A stretch of DNA of 35,580 nucleotides, from contig BTVJ01000074.1 of assembly GCA_045863395.1 (NCBI GenBank), positions 1-35,580 on the forward strand, read 5' to 3'. Positions 8,075 to 35,580 of this stretch are shown piece after piece (position 1 is the first letter of the stretch; the number at the start of each line of letters is the position of its first letter). A program made the position numbers and the translations under genes. Source of the stretch: Myxococcales bacterium. Its GTDB lineage: Bacteria; Myxococcota_A; UBA9042; JABWCM01; BTVJ01. The notes under the pieces were generated by a model, which was not told where the DNA came from, ran no database searches, and was given only the letters and a program-made list of their open reading frames with translations.

Positions 8075-8313
8075 GCGGTGCCCTCGTCGTGGAGCACCGG
8101 CATGCCCTCCCGGTCCCGGTGATGCACGACCAGGCGCCCGACCTTTCGCCGGTATTCGACGACCTGCTCGACGACCTGCTCCACGGGTTCCTTGACCACG
8201 AGCTTGTCGCCGTTGGAGAACGTGAGGATGGTGTCGGGCGTGGATTCGATGGTCATCAACAGGTCGGCGTTGACGACCACGGCGCGGCCCGTCAGCCGTG
8301 TGAGATGGATCAC
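8071..8313 (-). CDS. flbD: Flagellar protein FlbD family
   Basis: MIHLTRLTGRAVVVNADLLMTIESTPDTILTFSNGDKLVVKE is typical of FlbD. GTG start overlaps the upstream stop; usual position before motA. Confidence 0.9.
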   Translation of the reverse strand: MIHLTRLTGRAVVVNADLLMTIESTPDTILTFSNGDKLVVKEPVEQVVEQVVEYRRKVGRLVVHHRDREGMPVLHDEGTA

Positions 8314-9110
8314 TGTGTCGCTCCTTTCACTGTTTCGTCGGTCCCCTGGTCCCCGTCGCTGTCCTGGTGCCCGTCGCCCCCGTCGCTCGCCTCTCCCTTG
8401 ACCCACGGCCAGACAGGTTGCCGGTCCACGCACCCCCCCTGCCGATCCGCCGCCGAGCAGTAGATCCGCACGTGGTAGTGGTCCGCGTGCGGAGACGACC
8501 CCCGCGGCTCCTGGAGCACCTTGCGCGCCCGTCGCAGGATGCGTGGGCTCTCTCCCCGTGCCGCAGCGTAGGCAAGCAGGCGCTCCTTCAGGGGGTCCGA
8601 GACGAAGACATATTGCACGGGAACGTCCTCGCTGGCCAGCAGCGTTCGGACGAACCACCAGTTGCGCTGGTCGTCGAAGCGCACCTTGTCGCAGCCCCGG
8701 GCGGCGCAGCGGCCGTCACCATCGAAGGCCACGAAGCCGCGCGGACGCACCGGCTTCCCTTCGAGATCCTGCACATAGAAGAGAACGTCCACGTCCCGGC
8801 CCGAGTTGTGGCTCATGTGGCGGCCAAGGTCTCCGCCCCCCTCGGCGCTGACGTCGGCTATCACCAGCGGAGGGCCGGGCACCGCGTCGTCGACCACCCG
8901 CGCCGCGCGTATCAGCAGCGCCGCCAGCTCCAGCGTCGCGTAGTTCGTGCCACGCGAGCGCACGGGCCCGTAGAAGCTGTGCCAGGCGCCGGTCAGCGGC
9001 ACGTGGAAGCCGTCCTGGAGCTCCCCGCCCTGCGGAGAGCCCACGGAGCGGGGCCGCGCCTCGGCCCCGAGCGCCGCGAGGAGCAGCGCGCCGATCACCG
9101 CTCCCCTCAC
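8310..9110 (-). CDS. mepA: Penicillin-insensitive murein endopeptidase, MepA family (LAS Zn-peptidase), exported
   Basis: Signal peptide; SVGSPQGGELQDG; Zn-ligand motifs HMSHNSGRDVD and HADHYHVR; paired Cys. GTGA overlaps with fliA and flbD. Confidence 0.85.
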   Translation of the reverse strand: MRGAVIGALLLAALGAEARPRSVGSPQGGELQDGFHVPLTGAWHSFYGPVRSRGTNYATLELAALLIRAARVVDDAVPGPPLVIADVSAEGGGDLGRHMSHNSGRDVDVLFYVQDLEGKPVRPRGFVAFDGDGRCAARGCDKVRFDDQRNWWFVRTLLASEDVPVQYVFVSDPLKERLLAYAAARGESPRILRRARKVLQEPRGSSPHADHYHVRIYCSAADRQGGCVDRQPVWPWVKGEASDGGDGHQDSDGDQGTDETVKGATQ

Positions 9111-20420: not shown

Positions 20421-21404
20421 CTATGGGCCCTCTGCGCTGACCGGGAGCCGCTTGATCTTCTCGACGAGGGTCGTGCGGTTGATGCCCAGGAGGGAGGCGG
20501 CGACGGACTTGTTGCCGCCGCTGCGGCGCAGCGCCTGGCGGATCAGGCTCAGCTCGAGCTGACCGAGGGCGTCGGGCAGGCTCAGACCGCTCTCGGGGAG
20601 ATGCACGCTAGGCACCGCCGGAGCGAGCGCGGATAGCCGGCTGCGGAACTTGCAGGCCACGTCGCCCTCGTCGATGACGCCGCGCTCCTTGAGGACCATG
20701 ACGCTCTGGATGACGTTCTCCAGCTCACGGACGTTGCCGGGCCACGAGTGGCGCTGCAGCAGGGCGAGGGCGCCCTCCGTGATGCCGGGGACGTCGACGC
20801 CCAGGGACTCCCGGTAGAGCGCCATGAAGTGGTCGACCAGGTGCGGGATGTCCATGGGCCGCTCGCGGAGCGGCGGGAGATGGATGCGGACGACGTCGAG
20901 GCGAAAGAACAGGTCCTGCCGGAAGGTGCCGGCGGCGACCGCCGCCTCGAGGTCCACGTTGGTGGCCGCCACGACGCGGAATGTCGCCTGCCGGGACTCG
21001 GTCGACCCGAGCGGCTCGAACACGCGCTCCTGCAGGACGCGAAGCAGCTTCACCTGCAGGTTGGGGGGCATCTCCGCGATCTCGTCGAAGAACAGCGTCC
21101 CGCCGCTCGCCAGCTCGAAGCGGCCGGGGCGCGCCCGATCCGCCCCGGTGAAGGCGCCCCGCGCGTGGCCGAACAGCTCGCTCTCCAGCAGGGGCTCCGG
21201 GATCGCGCCACAGTTGATGGGGACGAAGGGTCCGGTGCTCCAGGTGGAGAGATCGTGCACTGCCCGGACGACGCACTCCTTGCCCGTTCCGCTCTCCCCC
21301 GTAACCAGGACGTTCACGCGCGCGGCGGCGATCCGTTCCAGGGAGTCGAGGACGGCACCGAGGGGGGACCGCTCCGCGTGGACGATGCGGGAGCGCGAGG
21401 GCAC
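20421..21404 (-). CDS. Sigma54 enhancer-binding protein, FleQ/FlrA-like, without N-terminal sensory domain
   Basis: [44 protein letters not shown] and HTH NKSVAASLLGINRTTLVEK. An in-frame stop at 21438-21440 limits the N-terminus. Confidence 0.92.
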   Translation of the reverse strand: MPSRSRIVHAERSPLGAVLDSLERIAAARVNVLVTGESGTGKECVVRAVHDLSTWSTGPFVPINCGAIPEPLLESELFGHARGAFTGADRARPGRFELASGGTLFFDEIAEMPPNLQVKLLRVLQERVFEPLGSTESRQATFRVVAATNVDLEAAVAAGTFRQDLFFRLDVVRIHLPPLRERPMDIPHLVDHFMALYRESLGVDVPGITEGALALLQRHSWPGNVRELENVIQSVMVLKERGVIDEGDVACKFRSRLSALAPAVPSVHLPESGLSLPDALGQLELSLIRQALRRSGGNKSVAASLLGINRTTLVEKIKRLPVSAEGP

Positions 21405-22003: not shown

Positions 22004-23698
22004 ATGAGGCATGTCTCCGAGGGATCGGGTTGGCGGTGGGCGCTCGTCCTGGCGGCGCTCCTCTTCGGCCCGGTGGACGCGCTGGCCGTTCGCCGGGCGA
22101 GCGCGCCGGTCACTGCGGCAGGCGAGGCCGTGCTCCGCTTCCCTGCGTCCGACGGCTGGGACGGCGGCTCGCTCCGGTACAGCCCCCTGAGCGAGGTCCT
22201 CGTCCTGAAGTTCAAGCGGGGCGCAGAGGACCCCGTCACCTCGTTGGCACCGTCCCTGGGACGGGAGCAGCGCCATGTGTTCGCCCGCGTCGAGGCCGTG
22301 CACAACGAGCGCGGCAGCATGACCGTCCGCGTCCACGTGGAGCGCCGTGGTTACACTGCGGCCCTGCGCAGGAACGCCCGAGCGCGTGCCTGGGAGCTCA
22401 CGGTCACCCTCCCCCCCCCCGACGAGCTGGCGCCCGTGTCCTACGCGGCGCTCCTGCCGGAGGGCAACCCCCGTGACGCCCTGGCGGCGGTGGAGGAGAC
22501 CATGCGCGCCGGCGCGCCCGCCTGCCGCCCCCTGCAAGCGCTCCGGCGCTCGGGTGAGGGCTGGTCGGCGTGGGTGTCCTTGCGTCTGGCGGACTGCCTT
22601 CGTCAGAGCGGCGAGGCGGGGGCGAGCGTCGGGCTCGCGCTGGACCTGGCGGGCAACCCGGACGTCCCACCAGCCGTTGCTGCCCTCGCCTCGCTGCGCC
22701 TGGAGGAGTGGGCGCTGAACCTGCACTCCGCCATGGAGCCGAACATCTCGCCGGCCATGGTGAGCAGCCTGCCCCGCGACGTGGCCTTCGAGCTGGGCCT
22801 GCGGGTCGCGCGCACCTTGACCTTCCGGCAGCGCCCGCGGGAGGCCGCGGCTGCGCTGGTGGCGACCGACGGCCTCGGCGCGACGCCCCCGTCCCTGGTC
22901 GAGGGTCACCACTGGGTCCGCCTGCAGGTCCTCCATCAGCTCGTGGACGCCGAGAGCTGGTTCGATGCCGCCCGGGTGTTCGCATCGGGGCCTCTGCCGT
23001 CCCTGGGGTCCTCGAGCCGGGAGGGCACCCTCCGCCTCGGGACCCTTGCCCTGGCGCGCCTCGGGCAGGCCGATCGCGCCGCGGCGGTCGGGTCGGTCAT
23101 CCTGCGCACGGGCGGGAAGGTGGTAGACCCGGAGCTGATGAGCGCCATGAGCGAGGCGCTGTTCGCGCTCGGGCGCCACGAGGAGGCCGCCGCGACCCTC
23201 GCCGATGCCGGAGGGCGCGTCGTCCCCGGCGCGGGCGCCGTGTTCTCGGAGACGGAGGCCCGAGGGGTGGCGGCGCGCCTGGTCGCGTCGTGGCGATCCT
23301 CGGGGCTCGCCGCGGTGCTCGGGCTCCTGCGAGGCGTCGACGGCCTCGACCCCCGCGGGCTCCTCCGTGAGGTCACACTCGCCGCGCTGCTCGCCGAGGG
23401 GGACTGCACCGCCATCGACGCCGCGTCACCCGCGAAGGTGGTCCCGGGGCACCACACCTGGGCGGCGGCCTGCTGGCTGCGTGCCCGCGATCCCGAGGCG
23501 GCAGCGGCGTCGGCGACCCTGGACTCCCTGGCGCCGGAGGGGTCCAGCGCCGACGAGCTGGAGCGCGCCATGGCCGACCATGCGGTTCGCACCGCGTCCT
23601 TCATGGCCCGCATGGACGGTCGCCTGAACCCGCGGCCTGCGCCAGTGCCCCCTGTGGTGGAGGCCGCTCCGGTTCGCCAGGGCAGGAGGAGCCGATGA
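22004..23698 (+). CDS. Uncharacterised exported protein (beta-rich N-domain, helical TPR-like C-terminal region), first gene of the flagellar operon
   Basis: Signal peptide [17 protein letters not shown]; helical repeat-like segments such as [13 protein letters not shown] and [18 protein letters not shown] overlap with the next gene. Alternative start at 21944. Confidence 0.65.
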
Positions 23699-24738
23699 GC
23701 GTTCGTGGCAGCGCGCGCGTGATGCGTGGCGCGGAGTACCTGCTGGTCAGCGACAACGAGGGCATGGCGGCGACCCTGCGCCTCGCCCGGGGCGTGGCTC
23801 CGACGCCGACCACCGTGCTGCTCCTGGGTGAGAGCGGGACGGGCAAGGAGGTGGTCGCCCGCTACATCCACGCGGCGTCCGGGCGAGCGGGTGGCCCCTT
23901 CGTCGCGGTGAACTGCGGGGCCATCCCGGCGGGCCTCGTCGAGTCCGAGCTCTTCGGCCACGAGCGGGGCGCCTTCAGCGGCGCCCACGAGCGGCGCGCG
24001 GGCAAGTTCGAGCTGGCGCAGGGCGGGACCCTGCTCCTCGACGAGATCAGCGAGCTGCCCCTGGACCTCCAGGCGAGGCTCCTGCGGGTGCTCCAGGAGC
24101 GCGAGCTCTACCGGGTAGGCGGGACGGCCGCGGTGTCGCTCGACGTGCGCGTCATCGCCACCTCCAACCGGGACGTGCGGGCCATGGTCCAGGCAGGCAC
24201 CTTCCGCCAGGACCTGTACTACAGGCTCAACGTGTTCCCCGTGGCGCTGCCTCCCCTGCGCGCGCGCCGGGAGGACGTGCCGGTCCTCGCCGAGGTCATC
24301 CTCGCGCGCCTGTGCCGTCGGTTCGGCTACGCCCCCGTCGACCTCTCCGCCGGCGCGCTCTCGCGCTTCGAAGGGTATGGGTGGCCCGGCAACATCCGGG
24401 AGCTGAACAACGTGCTGGAGCGGGCGCTGATCCTGTCGGGCGGTGCCCCCATCGGCGCCGAGCACGTCGTCCTCGACGACGAGGTGGTCGCTCCCTGCGA
24501 CGTGGCGCCGGCGACGCCAGGGTTACGGGAGTCGGTGGCAGCGCGATCCTTGCGCGACGTCGAGAGATCGACCATCCTCCGCATCCTTCGGGAGTGCAAC
24601 GGCAACCGGACCCACGCCTCGGAGCGCCTGGGCATCAGCCTGCGGACGCTCCGCAACCGGATCCGGGAGTACCGCGACGAGGGCGTAGCCGTGCCGGAGT
24701 CGGCGCGCATGCCCGCGCTGCTCGTGGCAGGCATGTGA
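23695..24738 (+). CDS. Second sigma54 enhancer-binding protein (FleR/FlgR-like), without receiver domain
   Basis: [44 protein letters not shown] and [23 protein letters not shown]. Confidence 0.92.
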
Positions 24739-32836: not shown

Positions 32837-33628
32837 ATGACAGTGACAGGACCCAACGCGCAGGCGCCGTTCAGCGCCAAGCAGGGCACGGACCGGGCCA
32901 TGGACTTCAGCGGAAAGACGGCGCTCGGCAAGGAGGACTTCCTCAAGCTGCTGGTGACCCAGCTCGCCAACCAGGATCCGCTGAACCCGACGGACAGCAC
33001 CCAGTTCGTGGCCCAGCTCGCCCAGTTCTCGTCGCTGGAGCAGCTCGCGAACATGCGCGAGGGCCTGGACATGCTCGCCATCGTCCAGACGGCCGGCACC
33101 AGCGCCCAGATGGTCAGCTTCATCGGCAAGACGGTGAAGATCAGCGATCAGAGCCTGACGTGGGCGGAGGGCCAGAAGAGCGGCACCGTGGACTTCTCCC
33201 TGGACGGCGACGCCAAGAACGTCAAGGTGGCCATCAAGGACGAGAGCGGAAAGACGGTGAAGACCATCGAGGCCGGCTCGCTGACGGGGGGCAAGCACAG
33301 CGTGACGGTCGACGGCAAGAACAGCGACGGCAGCCCGCTGCCGGCGGGCAGCTACACCTTCGAGGTGACGGCGACGGACGTGGAGGGCAAGTCCGTGAAC
33401 GTGTCGACCACCTCGACGGGCGTGGTCGTCGGCGTGACCTTCGAGAGCGGCTACCCGGAGCTGGTGCTCGCCGACGGCCGCACGGTGCAGCTCGGCTCGG
33501 TCATCGAGGTCCTCGACGGCCCGACGACCGAGACGGCGGCCAAGGATTCCGTGAACGACCTGATCTCGAAGCTCCCGCAGGAGGCCTTGGACACCGAGGA
33601 CCTGCTCCCCGACAACTTCCGTATGTGA
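32837..33628 (+). CDS. flgD: Hook capping protein FlgD
   Basis: LGKEDFLKLLVTQLANQDPLNP, AQLAQFSSLEQ, and an Ig-like domain DGKNSDGSPLPAGSYTF. Confidence 0.97.
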   Translation: MTVTGPNAQAPFSAKQGTDRAMDFSGKTALGKEDFLKLLVTQLANQDPLNPTDSTQFVAQLAQFSSLEQLANMREGLDMLAIVQTAGTSAQMVSFIGKTVKISDQSLTWAEGQKSGTVDFSLDGDAKNVKVAIKDESGKTVKTIEAGSLTGGKHSVTVDGKNSDGSPLPAGSYTFEVTATDVEGKSVNVSTTSTGVVVGVTFESGYPELVLADGRTVQLGSVIEVLDGPTTETAAKDSVNDLISKLPQEALDTEDLLPDNFRM

Positions 33629-33663
33629 CACCCACGGCACGCGCCGGGGAAAGGAGTGAGCCC

Positions 33664-34956
33664 ATGAGCATCTTCTCGTCGATGTACATCGGCATGAGCG
33701 GAATGAAGGTCAACGAGCACGCCATCGGCATCGTTGGCGACAACATCGCGAACATGAACACCATCGGGTTCAAGGCGAGCCGCGGGCAGTTCGAGGACCT
33801 GCTGAACCAGACGATCCTCGGGTCCGCCGGGGCGAGCCAGGTGGGGCAGGGGGCGACCCTCGCGGGGGTGGAGCGCTTGCACCTCCAGGGGGCGCTGCTC
33901 GGCACCGGGGTCAGCACGGATCTGGCGATCGGCGGCAACGGCTTCTTCATCGTGAACGGGTCCACGGCCGGCACCACGGGCAACTTCTACACCCGCAACG
34001 GCCAGTTCCACATGGACAAGGACGGCTACCTGGTCAACGCCCACGGCTTCAAGCTGCAGGGCTACCTGGCGAACCAGGACAGCCAGCTCAGCCCCATCCT
34101 GACGGACCTCCAGGTGGGCAACGCCACCCTGTCGCCCAAGTCGACGGAGGGCATCGCCATGGCCCTCAACCTGGACGCGGAGACCGACATCGCGGCCAAC
34201 CCCTTCGACCCCGCCAACCCCGCGGACTCGGCGGGCTTCTCGACGGCGATCACCGTCTATGACTCCCTGGGCAAGGGCCACCAGCTCGACGTGTACTTCG
34301 TGAAGACAGCCGAGGGGCAGTGGGAGTGGCACGCGCTGGCGGAGGGCGGCGAGCTGGACGGCGGCGTGGCCGGCACCCCGACGGAGGTCGCCAGCGGGAC
34401 CATCACCTTCACCACGGACGGGCTGCTGGACACGGAGGCCCAGGCGGCGTCCAACGTGACCTTCGTGGGGGCGAGCTCCCAGGACCTGATCTTCGACTTC
34501 GGCGAGGCCCTGACGACGGATGGCGGCGACGGGACGGGCACTTCGGGCTTCGGCTCTCCGAGCACGGTCAACTTCCAGAAGCAGGATGGCTACGGCGCCG
34601 GATCCTTCCAGTACATGACCATCGACGCCAAGGGCGAGATCATCGGCACGTTCAGCAACGGCGAGATTCGCACCCTGGGGCAGGTGGCGCTTGCCACGTT
34701 CCCGAGCCAGACGGGCCTCAAGTCCATCGGCCAGAACCTCTTCCTGGCGACCCGCGCCTCCGGCGAGCCGACGGTTGGCGGCCCGGGCACCGGCGGGCGT
34801 GGCGATCTCTACGCCGGGTCGCTGGAGCAGTCCAACGTGGACCTGACCAACGAGTTCACCCAGCTCATCGTCTCGGAGCGCGGCTACCAGGCCAACAGCC
34901 GCATCATCTCGACGGCCGACCAGCTCCTCGCCGAGGTCATCGCCCTCAAGCGGTAG
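33664..34956 (+). CDS. flgE: Flagellar hook protein FlgE
   Basis: GDNIANMNTIGFK, DLAIGGNGFF, YTRNGQF, VYDSLG and LEQSNVDL..RGYQANSR. Confidence 0.97.
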   Translation: MSIFSSMYIGMSGMKVNEHAIGIVGDNIANMNTIGFKASRGQFEDLLNQTILGSAGASQVGQGATLAGVERLHLQGALLGTGVSTDLAIGGNGFFIVNGSTAGTTGNFYTRNGQFHMDKDGYLVNAHGFKLQGYLANQDSQLSPILTDLQVGNATLSPKSTEGIAMALNLDAETDIAANPFDPANPADSAGFSTAITVYDSLGKGHQLDVYFVKTAEGQWEWHALAEGGELDGGVAGTPTEVASGTITFTTDGLLDTEAQAASNVTFVGASSQDLIFDFGEALTTDGGDGTGTSGFGSPSTVNFQKQDGYGAGSFQYMTIDAKGEIIGTFSNGEIRTLGQVALATFPSQTGLKSIGQNLFLATRASGEPTVGGPGTGGRGDLYAGSLEQSNVDLTNEFTQLIVSERGYQANSRIISTADQLLAEVIALKR

Positions 34957-35171
34957 CCGCCTCCCGTGCCTTCCTGTCGCGTCTCTCCGGGGCGCGCTCC
35001 CTCGATTGCCAGATTGTCACAGGTGGGGCCCTGCTCCCCGACACGGATGCCCCACTGGCGCTGCACGGCGACCCGTGGGTGCCTCCAGACCCCAGGGCGT
35101 CGATGGGCGCTGTAGCCTCAAGTCGTTGAATCTACGTCGAGATGCGGTGCGGAGTCCTGTGGAAGGGCGTC

Positions 35172-35187
35172 TGGCACGCATGGTGCA
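35172..35187 (+). promoter_or_regulatory. Sigma54 (-24/-12) promoter with no obvious downstream CDS
   Basis: TGGCAC-GCATG-GTGCA, preceded by C as in the two operon promoters. Confidence 0.72.
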
Positions 35188-35197
35188 TATGAATCCC

Positions 35198-35357
35198 GGC
35201 AACCGAGCCGCTCGCGGACGCCGCAAGAAGACTGGCGGACCGCGAGGGTGAACCTCCTCCGGATGTTCAAGACTCCTCGCGTCCCTGCAGACGCACGTTC
35301 CACCAACACAGCCCCACCGAGGCCGCCACGTCATCCGGAACGTGGCGGCTTCTCTCC
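35198..35357 (+). ncRNA. Candidate sigma54-dependent small RNA (about 160 nt)
   Basis: Bounded by the -24/-12 promoter and a GC stem with a pyrimidine tail. Internal hairpins at 35211-35246 and 35249-35269, the latter with a CU-rich loop. Ends are inferred. Confidence 0.5.
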
Positions 35358-35366
35358 CCTCCCTCT
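35322..35366 (+). terminator. Terminator-like hairpin
   Basis: GCCGCCACG-(TCATCCGGAA)-CGTGGCGGC followed by TTCTCTCCCCTCCCTCT; the U-tract is weak. Confidence 0.5.
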
Positions 35367-35412
35367 GTCGACTGGTGCGCCGGGCAGCCGGCGAGACCTC
35401 GTGAATACGTGC

Positions 35413-35441
35413 TTGACACGAGCCTGACCGCGTGCTTGAAT
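35413..35441 (+). promoter_or_regulatory. Probable sigma70-type promoter of tRNA-Val
   Basis: TTGACA-17 nt-TTGAAT with TG at the extended -10 position and a GC-rich discriminator; the -10 is imperfect. Confidence 0.5.
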
Positions 35442-35468
35442 GCGCTCCGCTTCCAACGGGAAGCCCCA

Positions 35469-35543
35469 GGGCGATTAACTCAGCGGTAGAGTGCCACCTT
35501 CACACGGTGGAAGTCGCAGGTTCAAATCCTGCATCGCCCACCA
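35469..35543 (+). tRNA. tRNA-Val(CAC)
   Basis: Acceptor stem GGGCGAT/ATCGCCC, anticodon arm CCACC-TTCACAC-GGTGG, T-loop TTCAAAT and encoded CCA. Confidence 0.97.
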
Positions 35544-35546
35544 GAG

Positions 35547-35577
35547 AGGCCAGCGGAAACGCTGGCCTTTTTTGTTT
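35547..35577 (+). terminator. Rho-independent terminator after tRNA
   Basis: AGGCCAGCG-GAAA-CGCTGGCCT followed by a T-run. Confidence 0.92.
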
Positions 35578-35580
35578 CTG

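Follow-up and report, generated by a model that had tools for sequence, protein, structure and literature searches.

The spacer that separates flgE from tRNA-Val(CAC) at the end of a flagellar gene cluster harbors a candidate small RNA (35198..35366, plus strand as given by its promoter), which we hold with moderate confidence to be a standalone sigma54-promoted non-coding RNA of ~150-170 nt acting as an Hfq-independent, multi-target anti-Shine-Dalgarno (anti-SD) sRNA. Searches seeded from this element revealed a class-wide group of RNAs (alignment A3) that is better supported than the element itself and is the best-supported novelty of this analysis, an undescribed sigma54 sRNA family. The literature searched, with most subscription papers outside its coverage, yielded no description of the element or of the family.

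The element lies in a window of 35,580 nucleotides, the whole stretch of DNA analysed, which corresponds to contig C74 of an 8.8-Mb genome (70.9% GC, 97% complete). The closest relatives of its FlgE are found in Myxococcota or Deltaproteobacteria MAGs, and the genome collection used for comparison holds no genome of the same family. The window carries a flagellar cluster that includes fliA and the genes for two sigma54 activators; flgE (33664..34956, plus strand; Pfam flagellar hook/rod domains, start from the self-trained gene caller) is its last operon gene and is followed by a 512-nt spacer and tRNA-Val(CAC) (35469..35543, plus strand). The genes for FlgM and flagellin are located on contig C34, and neither Hfq nor CsrA was found in the 97%-complete genome. 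Both flagellar activators (20421-21404 and 23695-24738) lack an N-terminal sensory or receiver domain, the first is flanked by GTCA-N6-TGAC boxes (20404, 21764 and 21796), and a gene for an M74 murein endopeptidase (8310-9110) overlaps the fliA stop within the flagellar operon. Flagellar genes are patchy across the class, with a FlgE match in 24 of 107 genomes and in neither of the two same-order genomes.

The sigma54 (-24/-12) promoter proposed for this spacer in the initial annotation is present as a strict match at 35171..35187 on the plus strand, one of three in the window, with a predicted start at 35198. Strict sigma54 sites are strongly enriched in the intergenic DNA of this genome (36 observed against 3-6 expected), and the chance of encountering one is ~0.001 per 510-nt spacer strand, so that a chance origin of this site appears unlikely. 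The promoter is the part of the element that exceeds chance; the predicted fold of the RNA is no better than that of intergenic DNA from the same genome. Further upstream, a degenerate copy of the enhancer of the RNA family described below (YGACR-N4-YGTCR, matching at 8 of 10 positions; 35039..35052) ranks 7 among 165 promoters under a profile built from 16 other genomes. A TGTCA-type enhancer half-site (35007..35020) contains TTGTCAC, a heptamer that recurs at two of the 84 other sigma54-like promoters in intergenic DNA, the pattern having been picked post hoc. The IHF-like site reported at 35119..35131 on the minus strand was located there with one mismatch to the IHF consensus, and such sites occur at 6 of 85 intergenic sigma54-like promoters. 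The GTCA-N6-TGAC box precedes both flagellar sigma54 promoters of the window and, as had been noted, is absent from the flgE-tRNA spacer. One of two imperfect TGCC palindromes pointed out earlier (35048-35060) is interrupted in a related strain by an insertion at 35057.

The predicted fold of the RNA contains the hairpins and the second CU-rich tract initially described, at the same coordinates. Stem-loop 1 (35211..35246, plus strand) is found in both the MFE and the centroid structures, and stem-loop 2 (35249..35269, plus strand) displays CU tract 1 (35254-35260), which resembles the core of the A3 family. This CUCCUCC motif had been regarded as exposed, but its loop is only half open, an internal 3-bp helix reducing its mean unpaired probability to 0.55, as compared to 0.76 for the second tract. 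CU tract 2 (35272..35281, plus strand) is mostly single-stranded over its first 7 nt (unpaired probability 0.76-0.82) and precedes a small 5-bp hairpin (35279..35294, plus strand). The terminal hairpin (35319..35366, plus strand) is followed by a pyrimidine tail, as proposed, and its stem is longer than the 9 bp initially counted, with 10 Watson-Crick pairs and 13 pairs in all in the MFE structure. The tail, which is not rich in U, does not satisfy the terminator rule, unlike the U-tailed intrinsic terminator that the terminator scan located after the tRNA (35543..35580, plus strand), and the hairpin is probably a leaky terminator or a nuclease barrier. The element folds better than its shuffles (z -2.5), but 161 of 249 intergenic windows of the same GC content in this genome fold as well.

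An Rfam scan assigned no family to the element at gathering score (best E 2.5 over the element), and the RNA is, as the initial annotation had it, apparently undescribed. BLASTN searches with the spacer in its own genome and 40 relatives returned short chance matches only, and a strict pattern search in 106 class genomes did not recover a homolog. Several broader candidates were rejected: 33 metagenome matches to the strict motif, none judged homologous by eye; a looser motif, found in 8 of 401 phylum genomes and, reversed as a control, in 7; and a double-CU pattern, found in 10 of 107 genomes and in 5 control genomes.

Evidence for transcription comes from metatranscriptomes, in the form of assembled contigs, which give neither strand nor level. 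Seventeen RNA runs from seven studies contain part of 34500-35460, and four of them, one per study, were examined. Two runs, representing two studies and two strains, are informative: X1 derives from the same strain, and X8 from a related strain with 94 differences over 33481-35110. In both, the contigs covering flgE end at 35116 or 35110, positions 35117-35213, promoter included, are uncovered, and the next contig starts at exactly 35214, 16 nt past the predicted start. At each of these two starts, 23-24 nt of loose, non-genomic sequence with a common ending are attached, presumably sequencing adapter. The coincidence points to 35214 as a defined RNA end, which may be a processing site or else the true start, shortened by losses in library preparation. 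Runs X4 and X10 contain flgE pieces only, and a gap in assembled contigs is in general no proof of anything. The X1 and X8 contigs also bridge the terminal hairpin and continue to 35498-35504, inside tRNA-Val. The locus is a candidate for a discrete small RNA, with its 5' end seen and 3' read-through into the tRNA. On the flgE side, the RNA contigs of both studies stop ~155 nt past the stop codon, where there is no terminator hairpin, and this boundary may be either the 3' end of the operon or the start of an antisense RNA.

The related strain provides a weak sign of constraint on the element. Its eight indels fall in 34995-35064 (four) and 35365-35399 (four), with none in 35214-35364, and it shows 21 differences over 285 nt, where the first 132 codons of flgE have 19 third-position changes.

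The continuity of the contigs from 35214 into the tRNA in both informative runs, together with a terminal hairpin that has no U tract, is what one would expect if the sigma54 promoter provided a second, regulated transcript for tRNA-Val(CAC) and the 270-nt leader were a processing by-product devoid of trans function. To this extent the possibility, raised beforehand, that the promoter only reads through into tRNA-Val is partly borne out. The tRNA, however, has its own sigma70-type promoter (35413..35441, plus strand; perfect -35, 17-nt spacer and weak extended -10), and the TTGACA box initially assigned to it is found at 35413-35418, the promoter as a whole not passing the strict scan. Judged by eye, a TTGAC(A/T) box precedes tRNA-Val(CAC) in all 28 class loci with upstream sequence, whereas a sigma54-like site lies upstream in only one of the 28, within an opposite-strand gene; this site, in G001, was dropped for lying inside that gene, presumably tsaE. 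By its predicted promoter, tRNA-Val does not need the sigma54 site. Since the leader reading also leaves the resemblance to the core and enhancer of the A3 family unexplained, we consider it unlikely.

The A3 family emerged from a seed pattern combining a sigma54 site, TCCTC and a U tract, which matched in 11 of 107 class genomes and in none when reversed as a control. Nine of the 11 loci looked like standalone RNAs of 113-133 nt and two were dropped; a covariance model was then built from three loci, with the promoter and the element itself excluded. The family was found in 16 of the 107 genomes, spanning six families, with one full copy each (loci L257, L237 and L258-L271; models R2/R3), and its RNAs measure ~117-136 nt, with one of 182 nt. 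All 16 members present a sigma54-type site, a YGACR-N4-YGTCR enhancer matching at 10 of 10 positions and an invariant AGUUCCUCC core, which is predicted to be open (unpaired probability 0.63-1.0) and whose 18 nt are the complement of an SD sequence, spacer and AUG. In the terminal hairpin, which has a conserved loop, both partners have changed at 13 of 18 pairs, kin among the members not being independent. A gene for a LysM-M74 murein endopeptidase adjoins 10 of the 16 members. Rfam searches of seven family loci at E 0.5 returned nothing, and a survey of 151 phylum genomes for members outside the class gave two strong matches, both in the class; 15 weak matches in the same survey were rejected for having no upstream sigma54 site. 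Two ideas about the core were also discarded: a single conserved target, as 18 near-matches in five genomes shared no common ortholog, and an antisense peptide from the ATG complementary to the core, as the frames (18-105 codons) are unrelated in sequence and lack the start in 2 of 16 loci. In five genomes (G034, G043, G033, G064 and G010; families f10 and f11), further sigma54 RNAs with UCCUCC tracts and U tails (L231-L235) may be diverged orthologs of the family; L234 adjoins an M74 peptidase gene and L233, like some family members, a SpoU methylase gene.

The covariance models of the family (R1, R2 and R3) do not score the element; R1 and R3 make weak tests, as R1 contains no base pairs and R3 has those of the terminal hairpin alone. 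Under the 16-genome profiles, the element ranks second for the core among the 165 promoters which, with its enhancer rank, is the best joint rank of the genome; the corresponding core and enhancer ranks are 42 and 99 for one flagellar promoter and 157 and 54 for the other. There is some circularity in the core rank, as TCCTC, taken from the element, served to seed the family search; with TCCTC fixed and only the flanks scored the element ranks 514 of 34076. Element and family also share the sigma54 promoter, stem-loop 1, the terminal hairpin, the TGA..TCCTCC.GATGT likeness of the core and the distance from promoter to core (~80 nt in the element and 72-86 nt in 15 of 16 family members). Conversely, the element core has diverged from the invariant AGUUCCUCC, lacking its anti-AUG triplet, and its enhancer is degenerate; the element is also ~40 nt longer from core to end, has no U tail and no LysM-M74 neighbor. 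The best LysM-M74 match of the genome, on contig C72, has no family RNA in the 500 nt upstream. We regard kinship with the A3 family as likely on the basis of these resemblances, and do not class the element as a member.

These differences could also be those of a decaying duplicate of a family sRNA, still transcribed and no longer functional, with its enhancer (8 of 10 positions), half-closed loop and weak terminator in erosion, and the absence of homologs beyond one related strain is compatible with that. The working copy would be an RNA on contig C38 (G000:C38:59646-59802, minus strand; L021, L236), which has a CUCCUCCUUC loop followed by a AGACUCCU tract, a U-tailed terminator and a perfect family enhancer at -90, the family position, and ranks 34 and 2 for core and enhancer. 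A perfect promoter, a 5' end common to two strains that differ at ~15% of synonymous sites and an RNA body without indels are not what decay would be expected to leave, and we consider this explanation improbable. The C38 RNA shares a 12-nt loop stretch with the G034 locus (L231). By global alignment it ranks only 112 of 152 and was rejected as a sequence paralog of the element, as was the top-ranked site, on C61, which was attributed to chance, and BLASTN of the C38 RNA against its own genome and relatives gave short chance matches only. Four start regions pair with it at -30 to -36 kcal/mol, and they were rejected as targets, 4 of 22 controls being as good.

The initial annotation had interpreted the element as an RBS-blocking flagellar checkpoint. 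Such an RNA would be expressed together with flagellar genes of class II/III and would target the mRNA of fliI, flgM or a further flagellar gene for repression. Non-coding character, a sigma54 promoter and anti-SD tracts are all upheld by the analysis, and a flagellar role has on its side the position next to flgE, the three sigma54 sites of the window, the presence of FlgM and flagellin in the genome and the precedent of FlmE (in the part of PMC11187230 available to us). Nonetheless, no such element follows flgE in the relatives: among 23 class flgE loci, not one is followed by a sigma54 site or a tRNA in the next 700 nt (for one locus, 101 nt were available), and the same holds for 15 loci of a second set that overlaps the 23. 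These relatives are distant, and a single same-genus-level strain was encountered in the analysis. The spacer has no flagellar box, the flgE-side contigs stop before the promoter, and in the four family genomes tested (67-99% complete) flagellin gave no match. Nor do the predicted targets favor flagella. In a scan for short helices against 6052 predicted start regions, which ignores accessibility, the 44 start regions of the flagellar cluster have a median rank of 2426 (p 0.24), with fliI at 373, flgM at 543 and fliC at 1957. Two ranks do speak for a flagellar role, that of fliF (52) and that of the gene for the M74 peptidase behind fliA (4), the latter through pairing with the second CU tract. 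The complementarity proposed for fliI is at chance level, the 9-mer in question occurring in 30 of the 6052 regions. The best target match of the element is weaker than in all 22 flank-shuffled controls, so that no mRNA target stands out; an unconstrained duplex scan was not discriminating and was set aside. Nothing links the element specifically to flagella, its location after flgE is probably incidental, and we deem the checkpoint role quite improbable.

The genome contains 154 sigma54-like sites, 85 of them intergenic, of which seven pass a hairpin-plus-pyrimidine rule; two of the seven lie inside the downstream gene and two were set aside, one as a tRNA promoter and the other as an uncalled gene. 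The remaining three (the element, C38:59802 and C54:44021) have no same-strand gene and are followed by a strong hairpin with a pyrimidine tail. The C54 RNA (G000:C54:43810-44021, minus strand; L166:7810-8022) is ~185 nt long and GGAG-rich, ends in a U9 terminator and is divergent from dus, and its upstream box resembles that preceding a type IV pilin gene (C1:356197). Rfam scans of the C38 and C54 RNAs at gathering and E-value thresholds found nothing relevant. Strong family-type enhancers are also seen at C130:10427, C19:4678, C1:182068, C78:26545 and C86:12379 of the same genome (G000), and promoters with such an enhancer lead to thioredoxin/DsbA-VKOR genes, an M48 peptidase gene and small unnamed genes; the C130 promoter is divergent from genes for a sensor kinase and an NtrC-type regulator, a candidate activator.

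A duplex of the C54 RNA with 35249-35265 would be paired at 16 of 17 positions (-22.8 kcal/mol); this, with no mRNA target standing out, raises the idea that the element acts mainly by titration with this RNA, or by protein binding, instead of blocking mRNAs. The pairing is of marginal significance (12 of 600 and 24 of 600 shuffles were as good, for a region picked after seeing the match), and with the whole RNA 21 of 200 shuffles did as well; moreover, the two RNAs have different upstream boxes and the genome has no CsrA, making this mode of action highly improbable.

A small-protein mRNA of 54 codons starting at the ATG at 35263, flagged beforehand as a challenge to a non-coding reading, has an open frame in its favor and is scarcely credible, given a coding score of -0.35 per codon, a GC3 of 0.60 as compared to 0.94 in neighboring small genes, an anti-SD instead of an SD sequence before the ATG, the absence of an NCBIfam match and the four indels of the related strain (35365-35399, net -2) that shift the frame. 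All six of the overlapping small ORFs tested are scored as non-coding by the self-trained model (6131 genes, 90% coding), with values between -0.18 and -0.49 per codon where the 1st percentile of genes lies at +0.06, in agreement with the claim that no credible CDS follows the promoter, and three of the six had no match in an NCBIfam search.

Under the preferred reading of a standalone anti-SD sRNA, an enhancer-binding protein other than the flagellar one would activate the promoter, and the RNA would begin at 35198 or shortly thereafter, 35214 being a defined end. The terminal hairpin would stop transcription only partly, some transcripts running into tRNA-Val. tRNA 5' ends are generated by processing, and trimming of RNA 3' ends is well established; in this way, 5' processing of the tRNA could free the sRNA from the read-through form, and trimming could then proceed as far as the hairpin. 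The CU-rich tracts would then pair with GGAGG-type ribosome-binding sites of several mRNAs and lower their translation in the absence of Hfq, by analogy with the mRNA repression without Hfq reported for Pxr, MXnc1 and NfeR1. In evolutionary terms, the element is probably a diverged, lineage-specific relative of the A3 family. A broader scheme is possible and, in our judgement, rather doubtful: the family would broadly damp translation initiation, independently of Hfq and under the control of a regulator of envelope remodelling, and in this genome, where the element is a lineage-specific paralog, it would have split into two anti-SD RNAs (the element and C38) sponged by C54. The envelope-remodelling regulator is suggested by the LysM-M74 neighbor and by the M48 peptidase and thiol-redox genes that share the enhancer.

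In the literature searched, sRNA regulation in the Myxococcota is described for M. xanthus and its close kin only (Pxr and MXnc1). The element, and especially the family, offers a concrete candidate sRNA, for which promoter, enhancer, seed and structure can be specified, in an uncultured class detected in activated sludge metatranscriptomes, and allows a test of how SD-blocking RNAs choose their targets without Hfq. Neither would represent a novel type of regulator, as sRNAs driven by sigma54 and sRNAs with anti-SD activity are both established.

The closest precedent within the phylum is Pxr of M. xanthus (RF01812), which, in the portions of the reports available to us, has a sigma54 promoter with an upstream enhancer, about three stem-loops and processed forms, and is reported only for the Cystobacterineae (PMC5568312, PMC5684412, PMC10217877). 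Pxr and MXnc1 are described, in the accessible part of a further report, as pairing near SD sequences in the Hfq-less M. xanthus (10.1101/2025.09.11.675593). The element resembles Pxr in its sigma54 promoter, its predicted multi-stem-loop fold, its Hfq-less host and its phylum, but Pxr lies behind the NtrC-like pxrR/pxrK pair, whereas the element adjoins flgE and tRNA-Val. The Pxr model reached at best 18 bits in this genome, elsewhere than at the element and against a cut-off of 80, and its search across the phylum gave no match anywhere, controls included, and is hence uninformative.

FlmE (CJnc230) of Campylobacter jejuni is located behind flgE, is RpoN-dependent, carries an anti-SD tract and shows read-through into the next gene; according to the sections of the report available, it is cut from the flgE mRNA, always lies behind flgE and represses flgM (PMC11187230). 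The element is similarly positioned downstream of flgE, with a sigma54 (RpoN)-type promoter, an anti-SD tract and read-through. Unlike FlmE, it has its own promoter and is separated from flgE by a gap in RNA coverage; its position is not conserved in the relatives scanned, and its predicted targets give no flagellar signal. The contigs of two studies, which break at 35110-35116 and restart at 35214, suggest that it is neither co-transcribed with the flgE mRNA nor processed from it.

The Cuckoo / alpha-r14 sRNAs (NfeR1, RSs0680) combine CU-rich anti-SD loop motifs and variable stems with multi-target SD blocking, and the accessible parts of their descriptions place CCUCCUCCC in 2-4 loops, restrict them to the Alphaproteobacteria and have NfeR1 activated by LsrB and repressed by NtrC (PMC4615179, PMC10746234). 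In contrast to these RNAs, the element has a single CCUCCUCCG loop motif, half paired, plus a linker tract. As in the functional class of trans-acting anti-SD sRNAs, the element is a non-coding transcript with a promoter of its own.
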